A stretch of DNA of 64,000 nt from the NCBI GenBank assembly GCA_934101145.1, contig CAKOPZ010000005.1:5290-69289 (forward strand), in the 5' to 3' direction. Position 1 is the stretch's first letter. Every line of letters starts with the position of its first letter. Shown in pieces: positions 2 through 37,903 of this stretch. Source of the DNA: an uncultured Clostridia bacterium (GTDB lineage Bacteria > Bacillota > Clostridia > TANB77 > CAG-508). The position numbers were made by a program, and so were the translations under genes. Below the pieces are notes generated by a model. It did no database searches and was not told the DNA's origin. It saw only the letters and a list, made by a program, of their open reading frames with translations.

Positions 2-1183
2 CTTACAATGACAGCAACACCAATTCCAAGAACACTACATATGTCAATACTTGGAATTAGGGATATGTCTGTAATATATGAGCCACCACAAAACAGAAGA
101 CCAGTTCAAACTTATGTACTTGAATATGACAGAGAAGTTATAAAAGAAGCTATAACAAAAGAACTTGAAAGAAATGGTCAGGTATTTTATTTGTATAACA
201 AAGTAGAAGACATAGAGAAAAAAGCACTTGAAATAGACGAATTGGTGCCAGAAGCAAAAGTTGAATATGCACATGGCAAAATGTCTGGAAAACAGCTAGA
301 AGAAATCATGGAAAGATTTATAAATAAAGAAGTAAATGTACTTGTATGTACAACAATACTTGAATCTGGAATTGATATACCAAATGCAAATACAATAATT
401 GTAGAAAATGCAGACAGGCTTGGACTTGCACAGCTATATCAAATACGTGGAAGAGTTGGAAGAAGCAATAAACAAGCATATGCATATGTTACATATAAAA
501 GGGATAAACTACTTACAGAAGTTGCAGATAAAAGACTAAAAACTATAAAGGAATTTACAGAGTTTGGTTCAGGATTTAAAATAGCAATGAGAGACCTTGA
601 GATAAGAGGAGCCGGAAGTTTGCTAGGTGAAATTCAACATGGACATATGGAGCAAGTTGGATATGATACATATTGCAAATTACTTGACGAAGTTGTAAAA
701 GAAATGCAAGGAATAGAAGTAAAGGAAGAGCAAGATGTTCAAGTGGATATTAATATTTCAAGCTATATTCCAGATAGTTACATAGATTCTGGAAGTCAAA
801 AAATTGAAGTATATCAAAACATTGCACTTTGTAGAACAGAAGATGATATACAAAATGTTATTGATGAATTAGTTGATAGATATGGAAATCCACCAAAAGA
901 GATAGAGAATTTGCTAGAAGTTACAAGAATAAAGGAGCTTGCAAGAAATGCAAATGTGGTAAAAATATCTCAAAGAGCCTCAAATGTTGTATTCTATTTT
1001 GATAGAAGCAAATATAACCCAGATATTATAGATAAACTTGTTAAAAAATATGAATTTAATGTAAAATTTGGTGCAGGAATTGAGCCATATGTAACATTAA
1101 AAGTAAATAATGAAACAGATAAAAAATTGATAGAGACTATAAAAGAATTCTTAATTTTTGTATCTGAAAAAGGAGAAGAATAG
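2..1183 (+). CDS. mfd: Transcription-repair coupling factor Mfd, C-terminal part (5' end outside window)
   Basis: Frame is open from the window edge. SF2 helicase C-terminal motifs TTILESGIDIPNANTIIVENADRLGLAQLYQIRGRVGRS are followed by a TRCF C-terminal domain. Confidence 0.9.
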   Translation, partial: LTMTATPIPRTLHMSILGIRDMSVIYEPPQNRRPVQTYVLEYDREVIKEAITKELERNGQVFYLYNKVEDIEKKALEIDELVPEAKVEYAHGKMSGKQLEEIMERFINKEVNVLVCTTILESGIDIPNANTIIVENADRLGLAQLYQIRGRVGRSNKQAYAYVTYKRDKLLTEVADKRLKTIKEFTEFGSGFKIAMRDLEIRGAGSLLGEIQHGHMEQVGYDTYCKLLDEVVKEMQGIEVKEEQDVQVDINISSYIPDSYIDSGSQKIEVYQNIALCRTEDDIQNVIDELVDRYGNPPKEIENLLEVTRIKELARNANVVKISQRASNVVFYFDRSKYNPDIIDKLVKKYEFNVKFGAGIEPYVTLKVNNETDKKLIETIKEFLIFVSEKGEE

Positions 1184-1971
1184 TGCAGATTATTTCAAGT
1201 AAAGATAATGAAATTGTAAAAAATATAAAAAAGCTTAAAGAAAAGAAATATAGAGATTTGGAAAATAAATTTATTGTAGAAGGAATTAAGCTTGTAGAAG
1301 AGGCAATACAGGAAAATGCTGATATAAAGCAAATTGTAGTATGTGATGATGATGTACAAGAAGGTAATTTGTCAAAAGAATATATGTACAAAATTGCAAA
1401 ATATGATTGTATATATGTTACAGCAAAGGTATTTCAGGTATTATCTGATGTAAAAACACCTCAAGGTATTTTGGCAGTAATTGAAAAGAAAAACACAAAT
1501 ACTACACTTGATTTTTCACAAGATATAATAATTGCATTAGATGATATACAAGATCCAGGAAACCTTGGAACAATACTTAGAACAGTTGATAGTGCAGGAC
1601 TAAATCAAATAATACTTTCAAAAAATAGTGCAGATGCATTTAATCCAAAAGTAGTTAGATCTACAATGGGTGCAATTTTTAGAGTAAATATAATAATTGC
1701 AGAAAATTTAGAAGAGATGCTAAAACAGGCACAAAAAAATAAATTTGAAATAATGGTAACTTCGCTGGATACACAAAATAGCATATATGATATAAAGTAT
1801 AAAAATAAAGTGATTGTTATTGGAAACGAGGCAAACGGAGTGTCTAAACCTATACAAGATATGGCAGATAAAAAAGTTAAAATTCCTATGCTTGGAAAAA
1901 CAGAAAGCTTAAATGCTTCTGTCGCAGCAAGCATTATGATATATGAATATGTTAGAGGAAAGATAGTATAA
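1183..1971 (+). CDS. TrmH/SpoU-family RNA 2'-O-methyltransferase
   Basis: GTG start overlaps the mfd stop, with RBS AAAGGAG upstream. SpoU motifs DPGNLGTILRT, VIVIGNEANGVS and IPMLGKTESLNASVAASI are present. Confidence 0.8.
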   Translation: MQIISSKDNEIVKNIKKLKEKKYRDLENKFIVEGIKLVEEAIQENADIKQIVVCDDDVQEGNLSKEYMYKIAKYDCIYVTAKVFQVLSDVKTPQGILAVIEKKNTNTTLDFSQDIIIALDDIQDPGNLGTILRTVDSAGLNQIILSKNSADAFNPKVVRSTMGAIFRVNIIIAENLEEMLKQAQKNKFEIMVTSLDTQNSIYDIKYKNKVIVIGNEANGVSKPIQDMADKKVKIPMLGKTESLNASVAASIMIYEYVRGKIV

Positions 1972-2060
1972 ATAGGAATTTTGTGATAAATCGAAAAAAA
2001 GGCTGGAATTTTGTGATAAACTTGTGAAAAATACACTTTTTCATATATGAAAACAATACA

Positions 2061-2101
2061 AAAATAACTCTGAATTAGCAATAAAGTCAGAGTTATTTTT
2101 T
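2061..2101 (+). terminator. Rho-independent terminator after the trmH-like gene
   Basis: Stem AAAATAACTCTGA / TCAGAGTTATTTT followed by a T-run. A near-identical copy lies at 6846-6887. Confidence 0.7.
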
Positions 2102-2357
2102 GATGTGGTACTTTTGGGAGGATGTTGAAAAAGTACCACAAAAATACCGTGAGTGAGTAATAATAAATGCAAGAGTAAAATAGAAATTTTTATTTAGAAA
2201 AAAATCGACAAAAGGGGTTGCTTTCTTTTGACAGGATTGGTAAAATAAGGATGTGAATTGAAGTACGCAAAAGATGAAAAGCTGTCCAAATTATCGAAAT
2301 TTTGCCTGTTGATTCAATAATTTTGTATACTAAAGAAAAAAGGAGGAAATGTTAAAA

Positions 2358-3476
2358 ATGAAAAACATAGTAAACAGAAGAAATAGTGGAATAACGCTAA
2401 TAGCGTTAGTTGTAACTATTGTAGTATTGATAATTCTTGCAACAGTAAGTATTTTTGCGGTATTTGGAGATAATGGAATAATATCAAGAGCACAAATTGC
2501 AAAGAGTACGCATGAAGAAGGAAAAGCGAATGAAGCAAATATGCTTGAAGATTATGCAAGCTATGTTGGAAATTATTTAGATGGAAAAAAAGACGACACT
2601 AAAAAAGATGAAGGAGCAACAGAAGGAATAACAGCAACAGTAGAAGGAAAGACAGTAACAATAACAAAAGATAATGTAGCAGACTATTTAGGAAGAGTAG
2701 TAACAAACTATGTACCAATAGCAACAACAGTAACAGTAGGGACAAAGACGTATACAGTATCAAATAACTACAGATTGTATTATGTAGATTTTGATAAAAA
2801 GTATAATAAAGATGAGGTATCAGTATTTTTGAAAGCAGATTGTACAAGCAATAATTATCAATTGCCAATAACAGATACAACATCAGCAGATGCAAGTAAT
2901 ATAAAAATCAAAGCATTAAATCCATCACTATATAAGGATGGAGTAACATCACCAACAGCAAGTCAAGAAAATATGAAGGAAGTAACATGGCTATTAAATA
3001 CAAGTAATTGGAATAGTTTAAAGACAGGAGCAAGCCTAGCAGATAAAGTAAATTATGTAGTAGGGGCACCAAGTGTAGAAATGATGATGGATAGCTATAA
3101 TACAAAGTATGGGCTAAAGGATAAAACAATAAATACAGATAAATTAACAGCAGATACAGAAAGAGCAAAATTGGTATATCAATATACAAGTGGAGATTTA
3201 GGATATAAAGTAGGACCATGTCATGATAATGGAACAGAATATGATTATTATACATCAGATTATTCAGTAAAAACAGATTCGAAAGTAGACAGTATGTTTT
3301 ATCCAGGAGATAACCAATGGTACTGGCTGGCGTCTCCTTCGGCTTACGACTCTAGCTATGTGTTCTATGTGAGCTACTATGGCGAAGGCAGTATGGGCGG
3401 CAACAGCTATGACTGCGACGGCGCGTTCTGTCCGCTAGTTTCTCTTAAGTCTACAGTCTCTCTACAACTACAGTAG
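2358..3476 (+). CDS. DGR target paralog 1: pilin-like N-terminus, conserved middle domain, C-terminal variable region
   Basis: AGGAGG lies 11 nt upstream of ATG 2358 (the ORF track starts at 2349). N-terminus is RRNSG-ITLIALVVTIVVLIILATVSI. The C-terminus WYWLASPSA...AFCPLVSLKSTVSLQLQ contains VR1. Confidence 0.85.
   Translation: MKNIVNRRNSGITLIALVVTIVVLIILATVSIFAVFGDNGIISRAQIAKSTHEEGKANEANMLEDYASYVGNYLDGKKDDTKKDEGATEGITATVEGKTVTITKDNVADYLGRVVTNYVPIATTVTVGTKTYTVSNNYRLYYVDFDKKYNKDEVSVFLKADCTSNNYQLPITDTTSADASNIKIKALNPSLYKDGVTSPTASQENMKEVTWLLNTSNWNSLKTGASLADKVNYVVGAPSVEMMMDSYNTKYGLKDKTINTDKLTADTERAKLVYQYTSGDLGYKVGPCHDNGTEYDYYTSDYSVKTDSKVDSMFYPGDNQWYWLASPSAYDSSYVFYVSYYGEGSMGGNSYDCDGAFCPLVSLKSTVSLQLQ
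3324..3438 (+). repeat. DGR variable repeat VR1
   Basis: 115-nt alignment to TR 9452-9566. Hand count gives 22 differences at TR adenines plus 6 at non-adenine positions. Confidence 0.8.
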
Positions 3477-3602
3477 AAAGTGCAAAAAAAAGTTAACATA
3501 AAACAATCTACGGGCTTTACAATACAAAAAGTTATTTCTTGTTTAAGAAATAACTTGACAAATAATTATTATCAAGGTTATAATAATTATGGGTGATGAA
3601 AA

Positions 3603-4796
3603 ATGCTAAAAAGAGAATTGTATTTATCAAGAATACGAGGATTTTATAATAGTGACCTTGTAAAAATTTTAGTAGGAATAAGAAGATGCGGAAAATCCGT
3701 AATTCTAAAACAAATAATGAACGAGCTAATTGAAAAAGGTATAGATGAAAATCATATAATACATATTAACTTTGAATTTATAGAGTATGAAGAGTTACAG
3801 GACTACAAAAAATTAAATAAATATATTAAAGAAAAAATTACAGATAGAAAAAAATATTATATATTTCTTGATGAAATTCAAAAAGTAGAAAAGTTTGAAG
3901 AAGTAGTAAATTCTTTAAGGGCATCTGTGGATAATATAAGTATATTTATTACAGGCTCAAATAGCAAATTGCTATCAAATGAGCTATCAACAGTTTTATC
4001 TGGAAGATATGTATTATTTAATATTTATCCATTAAGTTATAAGGAATTTGTAGAACTTACAAATAAGGAAGCAGAGTCAGAAGAAACATTTTGGGATTTT
4101 ATTAAGTGGGGTGGCTTACCTAACAGAACGCAGTTTACTGATGAAGAAAATATAAAAGATTATTTGCACAGTGTGTTTGATTCAATTATATTAAGAGATG
4201 TTGTGGAAAGATTGGGTCTAAAGGATATGGTTTTATTTAATTTGCTATTACAATATATTGTTGACACCACTGGACGTCAATTTTCAGCAGAAAATGTAAT
4301 TAACTATTTAAAATGTGAGGGAAAATCTGTATCAACTCAAACCTTATATGTATACTTAGATGCATTGTGCAGAGCATTGATAATAAAGAAAATATATAGA
4401 TATGATATTCATGGAAAAGCCATATTAAAAACTTTGAATAAATACTATATGACAGACCTTGGTATAGCTCAGATAAAAAATAATAATTTTGAGATAAATA
4501 AAAGTTTTGCAATAGAGAATGCTATATATAATGAATTGCTTGAAAGAGGGTATGATGTCTATATAGGGAAAACAAAAAATGGAGAAATAGATTTTATTGC
4601 AACAAAAACAGATGAGAAATTATATTTTCAAGTTGCATATTTATTGGAAAATGAGAAAGTTATAGATAGAGAATTTGGAGCTTTCAAAGAAATTAATGAT
4701 GATTATCCTAAATATGTGTTATCATTAGATAAAACGGATTTTTCAAAAGATGGAATTATTCATAAAAATATAATTGAGTGGTTGCTTGATAAATAA
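3603..4796 (+). CDS. AAA+ ATPase (AAA_14 / DUF4143-type architecture)
   Basis: Walker A GIRRCGKS and Walker B YYIFLDEIQ. Length and C-terminal region are typical of COG1373-like ATPases. Confidence 0.7.
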   Translation: MLKRELYLSRIRGFYNSDLVKILVGIRRCGKSVILKQIMNELIEKGIDENHIIHINFEFIEYEELQDYKKLNKYIKEKITDRKKYYIFLDEIQKVEKFEEVVNSLRASVDNISIFITGSNSKLLSNELSTVLSGRYVLFNIYPLSYKEFVELTNKEAESEETFWDFIKWGGLPNRTQFTDEENIKDYLHSVFDSIILRDVVERLGLKDMVLFNLLLQYIVDTTGRQFSAENVINYLKCEGKSVSTQTLYVYLDALCRALIIKKIYRYDIHGKAILKTLNKYYMTDLGIAQIKNNNFEINKSFAIENAIYNELLERGYDVYIGKTKNGEIDFIATKTDEKLYFQVAYLLENEKVIDREFGAFKEINDDYPKYVLSLDKTDFSKDGIIHKNIIEWLLDK

Positions 4797-4853
4797 ATTT
4801 ATGATTTATAAAAAATTGCTTTGAGTTTAGAAATAAATTCAAGGCAATTTTTT

Positions 4854-4962
4854 GTTGTATAGGAAAAATCGAAGATTTTCCCTATACAACAAGGTTAAGT
4901 TACATTGGGCTGTGCCGATTGCAAAACAATCGTGTACATGTGTCAAAGCCACTTTTCTTATT
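4854..4962 (+). repeat. Second dispersed element, copy 1 (begins with a 37-nt palindrome)
   Basis: GTTGTATAGGAAAAATCGAAGATTTTCCCTATACAAC plus about 70 nt is repeated in inverted orientation at 37957-38082. Identity is about 85% over the first ~75 nt by eye. Confidence 0.6.
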
Positions 4963-5129
4963 TAAAAGGAAAAATTGGACAGGTATCATATAGCATTAAT
5001 CTTAGAAATGGTAAAATCAAGTAAAAAAAGTATTGATTTTTAAAAATATAAATGGTAGTATAGGTATATGAAAAATGAACAAAGGAGTGCACAAAAGAAA
5101 TGATAAAGTATGAAACCGTTGAGGCTGTA

Positions 5130-5155
5130 AGAGAGAGAGAGAGAGAGAGAGAGAG
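5130..5155. repeat. (AG)13 dinucleotide microsatellite
   Basis: Uninterrupted agagag... run read directly from the sequence. Confidence 0.95.
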
Positions 5156-5372
5156 CCACAGTTTAGTAAAATAGATATAGAAGAAAATAGAGGCGAGAAA
5201 GCCTTTATTTGTGATAGAGAAAAAGACAGAAATAAAGCTAATGGTAGCTGGATTTCTATATTAGAAATTCCAAGTTGTCAAGAGCAAAGAGCTTGTAAAA
5301 GCTTATTTGTTCAAATAGCTTAATTTCTGTCTTTTTGTGCGCTTCAAAAATTGAAAAGGAGGAATTTAAAAA

Positions 5373-6506
5373 ATGAAAGAGGGAAAAATGAGGCAAGAAA
5401 GAGGTATCACGCTGATAGCGTTAGTTGTAACTATTGTAGTATTAATAATACTTGCAACAGTAAGTATTAATGCAGTGCTAGGACAAAATGGAATAATAGG
5501 GAAAGCAAAACAAGCAAAGGAGTCATATGAAAAAAGTGTGAAAGCAGAAGATACAGCAATGCAGGAATTACTAAATGAAATGGCACAGTATAATACTTAT
5601 AATAGTGGTTCAGGTGGAGGAACAACAAAACCTGAAGAAGGAATAACAGCAACAGTAGAAGGAAAGACAGTAACAATAACAAAAGATAATGTAGCAGATT
5701 ATTTAGGAAGAGTAGTAACAAACTATAAGCCAACATCAACAACAGTAACAGTAGGAAAAAAAGAATATACAGTATCAAATAATTACAGATTATATTATAT
5801 AGATTTTGAAAAAAAATATAATAAAGATGAAGTATCAGTATTTTTGAAGGCAGATTGTACAGGTAATATATATGCATTAGGACAAGATACAACAGCATCA
5901 ACAGCAGACAATGTAAAAATCAAGGCATTAAATCCATCATTATATAAGGATGGAGTAACAGCGCCAGCAGCAAGTCAAGCCAATATGAAAGCAGTAACAT
6001 TTTTAACAAATACAAGTAATTGGTCAAGCTTAAAAACAGGAGCAAGCCTAGCAGATAAAGTAAATTATGTAGTAGGTGCACCAAGTGTAGAGATGATGAT
6101 GGATAGTTATAATACAAAGTATGGATTAACAGGAAAAACACCAAATACAGGAACATTAACAGCAGATACAGCAAGAGCAAAATTATTCTATCAATATCCA
6201 ACAACGATAGATAGTAATAACTATGGATATGCGGTAGGCCCATGTAATAAAAGGTCAGATAAAAATGAATATAATTATTATACATCAGATTACTCAGTAA
6301 AAACAGATTCAGCAATAGACAGTATGTATTATCCAGGTAGTGGAAACTATTACTGGTTGGCGTCTCCTTCGGCTTCCTACGATTTCTGTGTGCTCAATGT
6401 GGACTGTCGCTTCGGGGGCCAAGTGTGCAACTGCAGCTGTAACAACAGTATTGCGCTTTGTCCGCTAGTTTCTCTTAAGTCTACAGTCTCTCTACAACTA
6501 CAGTAG
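5373..6506 (+). CDS. DGR target paralog 2 (pilin-like N-terminus, C-terminal VR)
   Basis: AGGAGG lies 10 nt upstream of the ATG. N-terminus is RQERG-ITLIALVVTIVVLIILATVSI. It shares the middle domain and the C-terminal YYWLASPSA...LCPLVSLKSTVSLQLQ with the other paralogs. Confidence 0.85.
   Translation: MKEGKMRQERGITLIALVVTIVVLIILATVSINAVLGQNGIIGKAKQAKESYEKSVKAEDTAMQELLNEMAQYNTYNSGSGGGTTKPEEGITATVEGKTVTITKDNVADYLGRVVTNYKPTSTTVTVGKKEYTVSNNYRLYYIDFEKKYNKDEVSVFLKADCTGNIYALGQDTTASTADNVKIKALNPSLYKDGVTAPAASQANMKAVTFLTNTSNWSSLKTGASLADKVNYVVGAPSVEMMMDSYNTKYGLTGKTPNTGTLTADTARAKLFYQYPTTIDSNNYGYAVGPCNKRSDKNEYNYYTSDYSVKTDSAIDSMYYPGSGNYYWLASPSASYDFCVLNVDCRFGGQVCNCSCNNSIALCPLVSLKSTVSLQLQ
6354..6468 (+). 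repeat. DGR variable repeat VR2
   Basis: 115-nt alignment to the TR. Hand count gives 23 differences at TR adenines plus 7 at non-adenine positions, including TTC->CTT inside the GC-rich 3' block. Confidence 0.8.
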
Positions 6507-6544
6507 AAAGTACAAAAAAGTTAACATAAAACAATCTACAACAA

Positions 6545-6787
6545 GCACAAAAAAATAAATTTGAAATAATGGTAACTTCGCTGGATACACCAAATAGCAT
6601 ATATGATATAAAGTATAAAAATAAAGTGATTGTTATTGGAAACGAGGCAAATGGAGTGTCTAAACCTATACAAGATATGGCAGATAAAAAAGTTAAAATT
6701 CCTATGCTTGGAAAAACAGAAAGCTTAAATGCTTCTGTCGCAGCAGGCATTATGATATATGAATATGTTAGAGGAAAGATAGTGTGA
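6545..6787 (+). pseudogene. Duplicated 3' fragment of the trmH-like gene (copy of 1729-1971)
   Basis: Near-identical to the last ~81 codons of the gene at 1183-1971. It has no N-terminal part, and the homology continues through the terminator into the upstream region of target 3. Confidence 0.85.
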
Positions 6788-7165
6788 ATAGGAATTTTGT
6801 GATAAACTTGTGAAAAATACACTTTTTCATATATGAAAACAATACAAAAATAACTCTGAATTGGCAATGAATTCAGAGTTATTTTTTGATGTGGTACTTT
6901 TGGGAGAACGTTGAAAAAGTACCACAAAAATACCGTGAGTGAGTAAAAATAAATGCAAGAGTAAAACATAAATTTTTATTTACAAAAAATCGACAAAGGG
7001 GTTGCTTTTTTTTGACAGTATTGGTAAAATAAGGATGTAAAATAACAATAAAGTATGCAAAAGATGAAAAATCTGCCAAAAATTATCGAAATTTTGCCTG
7101 TGGATTCGATAATTTTGGACATTTAATTTTTGTGTACTAAAGAAAAAAGGAGGAAAACGTTTAAA

Positions 7166-8299
7166 ATGAAAAACATAGTAAACAGAAGAAATAGTGGAAT
7201 AACGCTAATTGCGTTAGTTGTAACCATTGTAGTATTGATAATTCTTGCAACAGTGAGTATTAATACAGTATTAGGAGATAATGGAATAATAAAAAAAGCA
7301 CAAGAAGCTAAAGAGGCATACTCAAAAAGTGTGAAAGCAGAAGATACAGCAATGCAGAAATTACTAAATGAAATGGTACAGTATGATACTGATAATAGTG
7401 GTTCAGGTGGAGAAACAACAAAACCAGCAGAAGGAATAACAGCAACAGTAGATGGAAAGACAGTAACAATAACAAAAGACAATGTAGCAACATATTTAGG
7501 AAAAGTAGTAAGTAATTACAAGCCAACCGGAACAACAGTAGCTGTAGGAGGAACAACATATACAGTATCAAATAATTATAGATTGTATTATGTAGATTTT
7601 GAGGGAAAATATGGAGAAAAAAATGGAGTGTATTTGAAAGCAGATTGTACAAATAAAAATTATGCATTAGGACAAGATACAACAGCATCAACAGAAGACA
7701 ATATCAAAATCAAAGCATTAAATCCATCATTATATAATAAGGATGGGGTAACATCACCAGTAGCAAGTAATCCAAATATGAAAGCAGTAACATGGCTATT
7801 AAATACAAGTAATTGGAATAGTTTAAAAACAGGGGCAGGTTTAGCAGATAAAGTAAATTATGTAGTAGGTGCACCAAGTGTAGAGATGATGTTTGATAGT
7901 TATAATACAAAGTATGGGCTAACAGGAGAAACACCAGATACAAGCGCATTAAGTGCAAGTACAGATAGAGTAAAGCTATTCTATCAATATCCAACAACGA
8001 TAGATAGTAACAATTATGGATATGCGGTAGGCCCATGTAAGGATAGTTCAAATGAAAAAAAATATTATTATTACACATCAGATTATTCAGTAAAGACAGA
8101 TGCAACAATAGACAGTATGTATTATCCAGGGGATAATCAGTATTACTGGCTGGCGTCTCCTTCGGCTCACGGCACTAGCTTTGTGCTCTATGTGGACTCC
8201 AACGGCGGGGGCTATGTGTACAACTACAACTATGGCGGCAACGGTGCGTTCTGTCCGCTAGTTTCTCTTAAGTCTACAGTCTCTCTACAACTACAGTAG
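7166..8299 (+). CDS. DGR target paralog 3 (RT-proximal; pilin-like N-terminus, C-terminal VR)
   Basis: AGGAGG is upstream of ATG 7166 (the ORF track starts at 7130). N-terminus is RRNSG-ITLIALVVTIVVLIILATVSI. VR3 lies in the last ~50 codons. Confidence 0.9.
   Translation: MKNIVNRRNSGITLIALVVTIVVLIILATVSINTVLGDNGIIKKAQEAKEAYSKSVKAEDTAMQKLLNEMVQYDTDNSGSGGETTKPAEGITATVDGKTVTITKDNVATYLGKVVSNYKPTGTTVAVGGTTYTVSNNYRLYYVDFEGKYGEKNGVYLKADCTNKNYALGQDTTASTEDNIKIKALNPSLYNKDGVTSPVASNPNMKAVTWLLNTSNWNSLKTGAGLADKVNYVVGAPSVEMMFDSYNTKYGLTGETPDTSALSASTDRVKLFYQYPTTIDSNNYGYAVGPCKDSSNEKKYYYYTSDYSVKTDATIDSMYYPGDNQYYWLASPSAHGTSFVLYVDSNGGGYVYNYNYGGNGAFCPLVSLKSTVSLQLQ
8147..8261 (+). repeat. DGR variable repeat VR3 (cognate, adenine-only mismatches)
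   Basis: 115 nt aligned to TR 9452-9566. There are 20 mismatches, every one at a TR adenine, and 0 non-A mismatches (hand alignment). Confidence 0.9.
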
Positions 8300-30133: not shown

Positions 30134-31420
30134 ATGATAGCAAAAAACGTAAAAAAGCTTGTTGGCGTTATGCTAATAGTAATTACATTGATAATTGCCA
30201 CAGAAACATATTCTAGTGCTGCAACTGATATAACATCTGCAGATATAAAATATGTTAAAGATTGTGGGAGTCATTTGCAAGCAAAAGACAAAAATGGATG
30301 GTATACAATTGTAGCAAGTTATGTAGAATACACAGCACCAAATGGAGTAAAGTATCCAGCATATTGTTTGGATAATACAAAGCCAGGAGTTGGAAATTCA
30401 ATTATAGGAGATTTGCCAGAGGGATACAAAGTAGATGTAAGTAAGGTGCTAGAAAATAATCAAGTTTATACAGCTGTGATAAATGGGTATCCATATAAAA
30501 CACCAAAAGATTTAGGAGTAGAGGATAAATATGATGCATATATTGCAACAAAACAAGCAGTTTATTCTGTGTTATATAATTATGAGGTAGATGAGCATTA
30601 CAAAGGAGTGGATACACGAGGAGAAAACATAAAAAAGGCTATAAAAAATATTGTAAAAATAGCAAGAGAAAAAACACAAACTCAAAGGTCAGCTTTGATT
30701 AGATTTGAAAAAGTGGGCGAGTTTGGGATAGATGAAAAAGATAGTTCATATTATTCTATAAAATATAAGGCTACATGTGATGTAGATATGAAGAGCTATG
30801 AAATAATTTCAAAAACAGGGCTTACTAAAAATACAGTTATAACAGATGGTGATAATAACAAGAAAACGGTTTTTGAGGCACAAGATGAATTTAAAATAAT
30901 GATACCAAAAAGTGATGTAGAAAATGGAAAAGATATACAAGGAACAATTAATGCTAAAGCTAAATGTAGAAATAAACCAGTTTTTTATGGAAGAAAAAGT
31001 AGTAAGCTTCAACCATATGCTTTAACATATGATACATATGGTGATAATTATGCAAGCGTAGAATTAAATGTGAAAATGAATACTGGAAAATTACAAATAA
31101 ATAAGATTTCAGAAAAGACTAAAAAGCCAATTGCAGGTGTAACATTTAAGCTTATGAAACTTGATGGCACAGAAATAGAAACTAAAAAAACAGATGCGAA
31201 TGGTATGATTATTTTTGACAATTTATATGAAGGAAAGTATATAGTGCAAGAAATTGAAACAGGGGACAAATACATATTAAATGAGGAACCATTTGAAGTT
31301 GAAATAAAATATAATGAAACAACAAATGTTAGTGTTGAAAATAAAGAAAAAGAAGAGCCTAAAAAGCCAGAGAAACCACCAAAAACTCCAGTAAAAAAAT
31401 TACCAAGAACAGGATTTTAA
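30134..31420 (+). CDS. Cell-surface adhesin-like protein: possible thioester-type domain plus Cna-B/SpaA-fold domain, ending at an LPxTG motif with no membrane anchor
   Basis: Signal peptide; YPAYCLDNTKPG and ATKQAVY resemble thioester-domain motifs. GVTFKLMKLDGTEIETKKTDANGMIIFDNLYEGKYIVQEIE is Cna-B-like. A Pro/Lys-rich stalk follows, and the protein ends KKLPRTGF-stop. Confidence 0.6.
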   Translation: MIAKNVKKLVGVMLIVITLIIATETYSSAATDITSADIKYVKDCGSHLQAKDKNGWYTIVASYVEYTAPNGVKYPAYCLDNTKPGVGNSIIGDLPEGYKVDVSKVLENNQVYTAVINGYPYKTPKDLGVEDKYDAYIATKQAVYSVLYNYEVDEHYKGVDTRGENIKKAIKNIVKIAREKTQTQRSALIRFEKVGEFGIDEKDSSYYSIKYKATCDVDMKSYEIISKTGLTKNTVITDGDNNKKTVFEAQDEFKIMIPKSDVENGKDIQGTINAKAKCRNKPVFYGRKSSKLQPYALTYDTYGDNYASVELNVKMNTGKLQINKISEKTKKPIAGVTFKLMKLDGTEIETKKTDANGMIIFDNLYEGKYIVQEIETGDKYILNEEPFEVEIKYNETTNVSVENKEKEEPKKPEKPPKTPVKKLPRTGF

Positions 31421-36751: not shown

Positions 36752-37903
36752 ATGGAACATAAGGAAAAGAAAAGACAAGAGAACAAAGGAATAACGCTAA
36801 TAGCGTTAGTTGTAACTATTGTAGTTTTAATAATACTTGCAACAGTAAGTATTTTTGCTGTATTTGGAGATAATGGGCTAATAGCAAGGGCACAAACAGC
36901 AAGAGATGTACAGAACAAAGAAAAGGCAAAAGAGACAAATACACTTGATGATTATGCAAGTTATATAGGAAATTATTTAGATAGTAAAAGTGAAGATAAC
37001 TCTAAGGAAGACGATAACAAGAAAGAAGGAATAACAGCAACAGTAGATGGAAAGACAGTAACAATAACAAAAGATAATGTGGCGACATATTTAGGAAGAG
37101 TAGTAAGCAATTACAAGCCTACAACAAATACCGTAACAGTAGGGACAAATACGTATACAGTATCAAATAATTATAGATTGTATTATGTGGATTTTGATAA
37201 AAAATATAATAAAGATGAAGTATCAGTATTTTTAAAGGCAGATTGTACAAGCAATAATTATACATTAGGACAAGATACAACAGCATCAACAGTAGACAAT
37301 GTAAAAATCAAAGCATTAAATCCATCACTATATAAGGATGGAATTACATCACCAACAGCAAGTAATGCAAATATGCAAGCAGTAACATTTTTAACAAATA
37401 CAAGTAATTGGAATAGTTTAAAGATAGGAGCAAGCCTAGCAGATAAAGTAAATTATGTAGTAGGTGCACCAAGTGTAGAGATGATGTTTGATAGTTATAA
37501 TACAAAGTATGGGCTAAAGGATAAAGCAATAAATAAAGGAACATTAACAGCAGATACAAAAAGAGAAAAATTATTCTATCAATATCCAACAACAATAAAT
37601 ACTTATGGAAGTAATTTAGGATATGAGGTAGGACCAAATAATTCAAGCTCAGCAGTAAATGGATATAATTATTATACATCACAATATTCAGTAAAAACAG
37701 ATGCAACAATAGACAGTATGTATTATCCAGGAGATAGCCAATATTACTGGTTGGTGTCTCCTTCGGCTCGCAGCACTGACTATGTGCTCCGTGTGGGCTG
37801 CGGCGGAGGGGGCTATGTGAGCTTCGGCAGCTACTATAGCGACGGCAGTGCGTTCTGTCCGCTAGTTTCTCTTAAGTCTACAGTCTCTCTACAACTACAG
37901 TAG
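36752..37903 (+). CDS. DGR target paralog 4 (remote, ~26 kb from the RT)
   Basis: AAGGAG RBS. N-terminus is ENKG-ITLIALVVTIVVLIILATVSI. The middle domain and last 17 residues match paralogs 1-3. Confidence 0.85.
   Translation: MEHKEKKRQENKGITLIALVVTIVVLIILATVSIFAVFGDNGLIARAQTARDVQNKEKAKETNTLDDYASYIGNYLDSKSEDNSKEDDNKKEGITATVDGKTVTITKDNVATYLGRVVSNYKPTTNTVTVGTNTYTVSNNYRLYYVDFDKKYNKDEVSVFLKADCTSNNYTLGQDTTASTVDNVKIKALNPSLYKDGITSPTASNANMQAVTFLTNTSNWNSLKIGASLADKVNYVVGAPSVEMMFDSYNTKYGLKDKAINKGTLTADTKREKLFYQYPTTINTYGSNLGYEVGPNNSSSAVNGYNYYTSQYSVKTDATIDSMYYPGDSQYYWLVSPSARSTDYVLRVGCGGGGYVSFGSYYSDGSAFCPLVSLKSTVSLQLQ
37748..37865 (+). repeat. DGR variable repeat VR4 (one codon longer than the TR)
   Basis: Hand alignment gives about 26 differences at TR adenines, 3 non-A substitutions and one extra codon (TAC). 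Confidence 0.75.

Follow-up and report, generated by a model that had tools for sequence, protein, structure and literature searches.

A diversity-generating retroelement in an uncultured Clostridia bacterium appears to rewrite one of four pilin-like paralogs

We analyzed a 64,000-nucleotide stretch of DNA from an uncultured Clostridia bacterium (contig CAKOPZ010000005.1, positions 5,290–69,289, assembly GCA_934101145.1; hereafter the window), which contains a diversity-generating retroelement (DGR) and four paralogous genes, each carrying near its 3′ end a variable region (VR) related to the template repeat (TR) of the DGR. Our best explanation, to which we assign a probability of roughly 0.55, is that this DGR diversifies a pilin-headed surface protein with a DUF6273-like binding domain, possibly displayed on a pilus. 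The DGR is almost certainly active on the third paralog (7166–8299, + strand, 377 amino acids), whereas the VRs of the other three are very probably frozen.

The cassette lies downstream of paralog 3 on the same strand, in the order MutS-like open reading frame (ORF), Avd, TR, and reverse transcriptase (RT). The MutS-domain-I-like (MSL class) accessory gene (8438–8887) matches Pfam MutS_I at 6.7e-10. The Avd accessory protein (8868–9377) is matched by Pfam bAvd (5.7e-07) and NCBIfam DivGenRetAVD (1.4e-10), both under the curated cutoffs but specific. The TR (9452–9566) is rich in AAY codons and has 38 A in its 115 nucleotides, and the 320-amino-acid RT (9883–10845) matches RVT_1 at 1.8e-16 and contains IGSMTSQ and YQDD motifs. 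The 3′ end of the VR of paralog 3 (VR3, 8147–8261), GCGTTCTGTCCGCTAG, is the same as that of the TR, and beyond it the VR continues with TTTCTCTTAAG versus ATTCT-TTAAG in the TR, the arrangement of initiation of mutagenic homing sites (IMH and IMH*, respectively).

Comparison of VR3 with the TR reveals 20 mismatches, 20/20 at TR adenines; at the adenine content given above, the chance of such an A-only pattern is about (0.33)^20, or 2e-10. Seven further alleles of paralog 3 from other samples (P0002–P0008) show only 0–3 residue differences outside the VR, while 14–19 of the 26 VR residues differ, and every changed VR3 position among the alleles is a codon with an A in the TR. The same locus is present in a Hadza human-gut assembly (L120), where a further version of VR3 shows 22 differences, all at A. 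With an RT, an A-only TR/VR pair, diversification of the VR in the population, and Avd and IMH all found, the element belongs to the DGR class, and the cassette is a chromosomal, non-phage DGR of the MSL+Avd type (“architecture D”). Both the MSL accessory class and architecture D were described by Wu et al. (PMC5758913). The DGR invoked by the first-pass annotation is real, as are its cassette genes and the TR/VR relation.

Paralog 1 (2358–3476, 372 amino acids), paralog 2 (5373–6506, 377 amino acids), and the remote paralog 4 (36752–37903, 383 amino acids) are also encoded on the + strand. Pairwise identity among the four proteins (372–383 amino acids) is 67–76%, and they share a basic leader, an invariant G-ITLIALVVTIVVLIILATVSI, a G-x-NG-[IL]-I turn, and conserved middle blocks. 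Residues G11–I32 (GITLIALVVTIVVLIILATVSI) are invariant in all four. The tail reads [WY]YWL[AV]SPSA, then 26 variable codons (27 in paralog 4), and then A[FL]CPLVSLKSTVSLQLQ. ORFs and alignment agree with the earlier assignment of one architecture to these four genes, and the middle blocks quoted in that assignment are present in every copy. The conserved SPSA-type tail with 26 variable codons also holds, once the aromatic motif is corrected from W[LY]W to [WY]YW; in paralog 4 the sequence is WLVSPSA plus the extra codon, and paralog 2 has ALCPL. In paralog 3, residues 1–36 comprise the basic leader, Gly-1, and a pilin-type α1N segment with Ala5, residues 41–88 a helix and a Gly/Ser/Thr/Pro linker, and residues 90–377 the DUF6273-like putative binding domain.

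Judged from its sequence, the shared N-terminus is likely a type IV pilin class III signal/α1N module in which Ala takes the place of Glu5. Class III signals are defined by a leader, Gly-1, and a hydrophobic tract (PMC4471445), and the paralogs have R-R-N-S-G/ITLIALVVTIVVLIILATVSI (the slash follows Gly-1), a short hydrophilic leader ending in Gly followed by ~21 hydrophobic residues. Pfam N_methyl is the top match in 51 of 61 family members, below its cutoff of 21.2 bits. Replacing Ala5 with Glu in silico raised the N_methyl score from 18.6 to 25.4 bits for the window protein and from 20.6 to 27.6 bits for a relative, lifting both over the cutoff and thereby indicating that Glu5 is the sole missing element. 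Matches of the N-terminus to GspG/PilA in NCBIfam are weak, and a sequence profile search of the PDB gave pilin N-termini as its best, non-significant matches.

Conservation of this segment is pronounced. Between the window paralogs, the first 22 codons differ by 3–8 synonymous and 0 nonsynonymous changes, and the module is kept in family members that are just 35–55% identical overall. A full HMMER scan matched the module to 13,185 cluster representatives at E ≤ 0.001; Gly-1 is found in 147 of the 150 best clusters, which were built at 50% identity, and in 85 of 88 module ORFs from metagenomes. Across the relatives, position +5 is occupied by A, S, V, T, or G; E does not occur. Repeating the homolog search with a diverse profile recovered the close relatives already found (65–78% identity) and added little depth. 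The earlier reading of the N-terminus as pilin-type with Ala at +5 is upheld by the N_methyl ranking, the effect of the A5E substitution, and the near-invariance of Gly-1. Although almost invariant in bacteria, Glu5 is dispensable for prepilin cleavage, and mutants altered at this residue are able to co-assemble with wild-type subunits (PMC4471445); filaments can be capped by pilins without Glu5, and adhesive modules are carried by modular pilins (PMC9934059).

A scan of metagenome contigs with the module yielded 80 loci and 88 module ORFs, 79 of them complete, which fall into 23 pilin-sized (121–170 amino acids) and 56 large (244–685 amino acids) ORFs. A conserved type IV pilus (T4P) operon is present in 16 loci, and 15 of these account for 20 of the 23 pilin-sized ORFs; the remaining locus, L081, has the operon genes without a complete pilin-sized ORF. 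The operon is found at L080:7094–16432, in L063, L076, L084, L087, L102, and L110, and in 9 further loci. It consists of a pilM-like gene and two genes for membrane proteins, one or two Ala5-module pilins, pilD, two minor pilins, pilB, pilT, and pilC, in that order, with profile matches to A24_N_bact (pilD, 1.6e-29), T2SSE (pilB, 1e-102), T2SSF (9.5e-26), and pilT_fam (1.5e-94). The Ala5-module pilins are invariant over their 38 N-terminal residues and hypervariable beyond them, as major pilins are, and the minor pilins have G/FTGID (Asp5) and G/ITLIS (Ser5), respectively. The operon contigs are low-GC (26–27%) gut metagenome sequences with no pilin-like gene encoding Glu5, and no canonical GFTLIE pilin was found in the 573 kb of operon loci. 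Given PilT, the operon would probably produce a retractile pilus.

The module also heads larger proteins. These occur 2–3 kb downstream of the operon in L080 and L087, and across the large proteins the module is fused to LRR_5, GLUG, Big_2, DUF285, Lcl_C, fn3, and FGE-sulfatase domains. A stand-alone Peptidase_A24 gene (E 6.4e-20) is present in a metagenome-assembled genome (MAG) with four family members (L023). On a rabbit-gut MAG contig (L013:486–3204), three module genes are clustered: a tandem pair on one strand and, upstream of it on the other strand, a partial gene. The pair comprises a gene with an FGE-sulfatase-type domain and a member of the DGR-target family; such clustering suggests local arrays of pilin-headed binding proteins. 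At L034:10001–11246, a 94-amino-acid module ORF is followed after 100 bp by a 286-amino-acid ORF without a Pfam match, and the exact 94-amino-acid protein (P0175) is recorded on 37 contigs. Housekeeping genes and a putative split gene make up its context, in which pilus genes are lacking; it could be a true short pilin-like protein, or else the gene may be split or phase-variable.

We modeled paralog 3 with AlphaFold2 (AF2). The model, with a mean predicted local distance difference test (pLDDT) score of 68 and values of ~75–85 for residues 90–370, shows a transmembrane helix at residues 14–36, a break at GDNG, a second helix at 41–70 (pLDDT ~45–50), a disordered linker at 71–88, and one globular unit with the VR at its C-terminal end. 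A separate AF2 run on the C-terminal 183 residues gave a pLDDT of 44.6 and was not used; in the models the globular domain seems to need residues 90–194. Foldseek searches of BFVD matched a gut-phage receptor-binding protein at E 5.6e-5 and several DUF6273 proteins at probabilities of 0.92–0.99 (E 1e-3 to 4e-3), and searches of the PDB gave many C-type lectin domains and the Lcl C-terminal domain, weakly (E > 0.4). Pfam searches of the family gave DUF6273 in 7 of 61 members (best E 0.0042) and Lcl_C in 2 members (0.046), both below cutoff. In the DGR targets of Faecalibacterium prophages, it is DUF6273 that bears the VR, at the C-terminal end of the domain (PMC11792537). The modeled globular part appears to resemble DUF6273 and, more weakly, C-type lectin folds. 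The C-type-lectin VR scaffold suggested by the first-pass annotation was broadly right in being lectin-like, with DUF6273 as the better match; the model has an N-terminal transmembrane helix and no globular pilin head, and the C-type lectin matches in the PDB are not significant.

Taken together, these observations indicate that an error-prone RT copies the adenine-rich TR and rewrites the 26 variable codons near the end of the neighboring gene at 7166–8299. The product would be an extracytoplasmic ligand-binding protein with the VR at the C-terminal end of its binding domain. We infer that prepilin peptidase would cleave the proteins after Gly-1, which we hold to be somewhat better than an even bet, and that the pilin helix would then retain them in the membrane. 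The shared helix could further let the proteins enter a pilus in low copy, most plausibly at the tip, carrying the variable binding domain through the Gram-positive wall. This last step, incorporation into a pilus, is tentative, and we consider it rather doubtful on balance.

Several findings weigh against this explanation. The hallmark Glu at +5 is absent, with Ala in all four paralogs, and N_methyl reaches 14–16 bits with whole proteins and 18.6 bits with the N-terminal fragment, short of the cutoff. Gly-1 is replaced by Ala in L008 and L017; the sequences are KAITLVAL in an Erysipelotrichaceae MAG (L008:9974–11236) and KAITLIAL in a rabbit-gut Clostridia MAG (L017, ~9950–11215). The AF2 model lacks a pilin β-sheet head, so that the long α1 helix packed on such a head that characterizes pilins is not seen, and residues 1–88 are modeled with low confidence. 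The fold call depends on a model with a mean pLDDT of 68 and on Foldseek E values of 5.6e-5 to 4e-3, and the best PDB match, the IgA peptidase of T. ramosa (9qa6), has a non-significant E of 0.026; the N-terminal domain of this peptidase is itself a DUF6273 domain (PMC12402451). Pilus genes are absent from 29 genome loci of family-carrying MAGs, except for the one stand-alone A24 peptidase, and the pilus link rests on association in other organisms. We found none near further family members or in the left flank of the window, and searches for housekeeping genes linking the T4P-operon contigs to family-bearing MAGs revealed none that are shared. Gene maps, a motif scan, and a tblastn scan likewise found no pilus assembly genes in the 64-kb window, as had been remarked before.

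The main rival to a processed, pilus-compatible protein is an uncleaved signal-anchor. Here the proteins would be type II membrane proteins that hold the domain on the external side of the membrane with no pilus involved, the pilin resemblance would reflect common descent of a reused membrane-anchor cassette, and the DGR part would be unchanged. The absence of pilus genes near the sampled family members, the sub-cutoff N_methyl score and missing Glu5, and a model consisting of helix, linker, and domain without a pilin head are all consistent with such an anchor, and binding proteins anchored in the membrane by their N-terminus make up most cellular DGR targets (PMC8144416). However, a simple anchor leaves unexplained the near-invariant Gly-1 and the residue-level conservation in >100 clusters that share <50% identity, the lack of nonsynonymous changes beside 3–8 synonymous ones in the first 22 codons, and the occurrence of the same 38 residues on pilin-sized genes beside pilD in T4P operons. 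We therefore consider it unlikely, though a serious competitor, and prefer the pilin-headed protein described above.

Which of the four VRs the DGR currently rewrites is answered by comparing alleles. The first-pass annotation had the DGR diversifying all four paralogs, and this is not supported: only the gene at 7166–8299 varies between alleles in its VR. VR1 (3324–3438) is invariant in 8 alleles, VR2 (6354–6468) in 7, and VR4 (37748–37865) in 2, although these alleles differ elsewhere by 3–12 residues. The exact protein recurs on 18 contigs for paralog 1, 17 for paralog 2, and 22 for paralog 4, whereas the paralog 3 allele of the window is on 2 contigs. Relative to the TR, VR1 has 22 mismatches at A and 6 at other bases, VR2 has 23 at A and 7 elsewhere, including two within the GC-rich 3′ homology (GCGCTTTGTCC), and VR4 has a 3-bp insertion and mismatches at its 5′ end. 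Because VR3 varies between alleles and the other VRs are constant, we read the family as one live target and three frozen products of earlier mutagenesis. The evidence for freezing is thinnest for paralog 4, where it rests on only two distinct alleles.

One could instead suppose that all four paralogs are current DGR targets and that the three constant VRs are a sampling or assembly artifact. The sequence 3′ of the VR is the same in all four genes, the GC-rich VR end is intact in paralogs 1 and 4, mismatches to the TR are mostly at A, and remote targets are known for non-phage DGRs (PMC5758913). In addition, the relative L117, which has no adjacent cassette, has a VR that differs from the window TR at 20 positions, all at A. 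This A-only pattern implies that the same TR acts, or recently acted, from elsewhere in the L117 genome, where the DGR would be either remote or recently lost. Against four live targets stand the constancy of VR1, VR2, and VR4 in alleles that differ elsewhere, the recurrence of their exact proteins on 17–22 contigs versus 2 for the paralog 3 allele, and the 6–7 non-A mismatches or indel in these VRs versus none in VR3, which together make that alternative highly improbable.

With a single live target preferred, the other three paralogs would have been born of duplication and mosaic recombination, with VRs written by the same kind of TR and now fixed, so that the cell would hold three fixed binding specificities plus one that is still being diversified. 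Sliding identity shows that the four paralogs are recombination mosaics of one another. A segmental duplicate at 6536–6989 (+ strand) is 95–97% identical to 1720–2203, a source that comprises the 3′ end of the SpoU methyltransferase gene and the upstream region of paralog 1; by sliding identity, this duplicate supplied the upstream region of paralog 3. The duplication also left a 72-amino-acid SpoU methylase fragment ORF (6569–6787) upstream of the active target. Homology to the TR is intact at both VR ends of paralog 1, though it is frozen. An inverted repeat 3′ of the VR is present in paralogs 3 and 4 only. As a cause of activity this 3′ hairpin was rejected: its DNA fold is no better than those of shuffled sequences (z −0.5), and paralog 4 has the repeat yet is frozen. 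A promoter/terminator scan gave counts that did not differ from those in shuffles.

That the genes are prophage receptor-binding proteins and the DGR phage-borne is a very remote prospect: structurally, gut-phage receptor-binding and DUF6273 proteins come closest, but the flanks are housekeeping (mfd, SpoU methylase, aspS, mnmA), gene maps of the window and flanks contain no phage genes, tblastn against 50,697 phage records gave zero matches, and an N-terminal membrane/pilin segment is not a feature of tail fibers. Searches of plasmid records with tblastn also returned zero matches.

The window as a whole has a G+C content of 30.6% and, by its gene maps, contains housekeeping and sporulation genes. 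We compared window positions 1183–12677 with L119:10001–15759 and L117:9025–13109. In L119, whose SpoU protein is identical, the interval between SpoU and aspS contains one AAA_14/DUF4143 gene and one family gene without a DGR, and L117 has a single family gene between SpoU and aspS. Between SpoU and aspS, the DGR cassette and the extra paralogs form an island that varies from strain to strain. Paralogs 1 and 2 are separated by a gene for an AAA_14 + DUF4143 ATPase (3603–4796), and the DGR-less strain L119 has a longer version (444 amino acids) at the same place. A 428-amino-acid protein with TED, SdrD_B, and SpaA domains is encoded at 30134–31420; it is a probable thioester/isopeptide-type, sortase-linked surface adhesin and would represent a second, unrelated surface-display route in the window. 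In a contig from the same species (L004:17486–18745), ~6 kb past the right end of the window, a fifth protein of 419 amino acids has an identical pilin-type N-terminus, an FGE-sulfatase-like C-terminus (Pfam E 2.3e-4, just under cutoff), and no match to the window TR; a sortase gene is located upstream of it (L004:15814–16521). The sole Rfam match in the window is a T-box leader at 62287–62537 (RF00230, 96.2 bits), upstream of pheS.

The cassette resembles architecture D DGRs, such as that of Legionella, in its RT, TR, Avd, small MutS-like gene, C-terminal VR, and A-to-N mutagenesis bounded by the IMH (PMC5758913). It is also like DGRs with multiple or non-adjacent targets, such as that of Treponema (PMC5758913), with the extra VR paralogs here located nearby and 27 kb away. 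That work already covers multi-target DGRs and MSL accessory genes, lectin-like membrane-anchored targets are likewise known (PMC8144416), and a GspG-type pilin domain appears in a published list as a rare domain of DGR targets (PMC11661182). In contrast to the DGRs of PMC5758913, the N-terminus of the target here is of the pilin type instead of being a lipoprotein or Sec signal, and three of the four VR-bearing genes are static. We found no literature description of the Ala5 module, the operon without Glu5, or DGR-varied type IV pilin-like proteins in Gram-positive bacteria.

Among pilins, the closest likeness is to the modular PilB and PilC of Streptococcus sanguinis, in which an adhesive or lectin module is grafted onto a class III-type N-terminus (PMC9934059). 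The family shows the same layout of a module C-terminal to the pilin N-terminus, DUF6273-like in the window proteins and LRR_5, GLUG, Big_2, Lcl_C, or FGE-sulfatase in relatives. Unlike the S. sanguinis proteins, the modeled target has no recognizable pilin β-sheet moiety, its gene lies outside a pil locus, and its binding module is diversified by a DGR. The tip pilins GspK and PilA also lack Glu5, and there the missing residue is tied to the filament-capping position (PMC9934059). In contrast to both sets, all module proteins lack Glu5, including the operon's own pilin-sized subunits. The DUF6273 proteins of Faecalibacterium prophages (PMC11792537) and Thomasclavelia ramosa (PMC12402451) are alike in the apparent fold match, the former also in having the VR at the C-terminus of the domain and the latter as the top PDB match, 9qa6. 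The window protein differs from them in being cellular and pilin-headed rather than a phage tail protein or a secreted sortase substrate, and its Pfam match is below cutoff. Finally, Bacteroides type V pilus adhesins are another case of a gut commensal that varies a pilus-associated adhesin by a DGR; the pilus class described there is unrelated (type V, Gram-negative, assembled by strand exchange), and the pilus link in our system comes from the N-terminal module alone.

These results highlight a locus in which one TR has an active target and three frozen ones within a single genome, a natural comparison that can be used to learn what makes a VR competent for retrohoming, and they indicate that tallying VR-like paralogs overstates the number of live targets. 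The near-universal role ascribed to Glu5 among bacterial pilins is called into question by the Ala5 module, which is found at the head of pilin-sized T4P operon subunits and of >10,000 divergent protein clusters. The module also suggests that gut Clostridia encode a large class of pilin-headed adhesins that has gone unannotated. We offer as a speculation, and an unlikely one at present, that a low-GC gut Firmicutes lineage has a retractile T4P built without Glu5 subunits and uses a near-invariant α1N as a universal adaptor for dozens of adhesin modules per genome, one of them coupled here to a DGR, which would yield a pilus-borne binding domain under ongoing re-randomization beside fixed former variants. 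If the target is indeed pilus-borne, it would be a Gram-positive, type IV counterpart of the DGR-varied type V pilus adhesins of Bacteroides.

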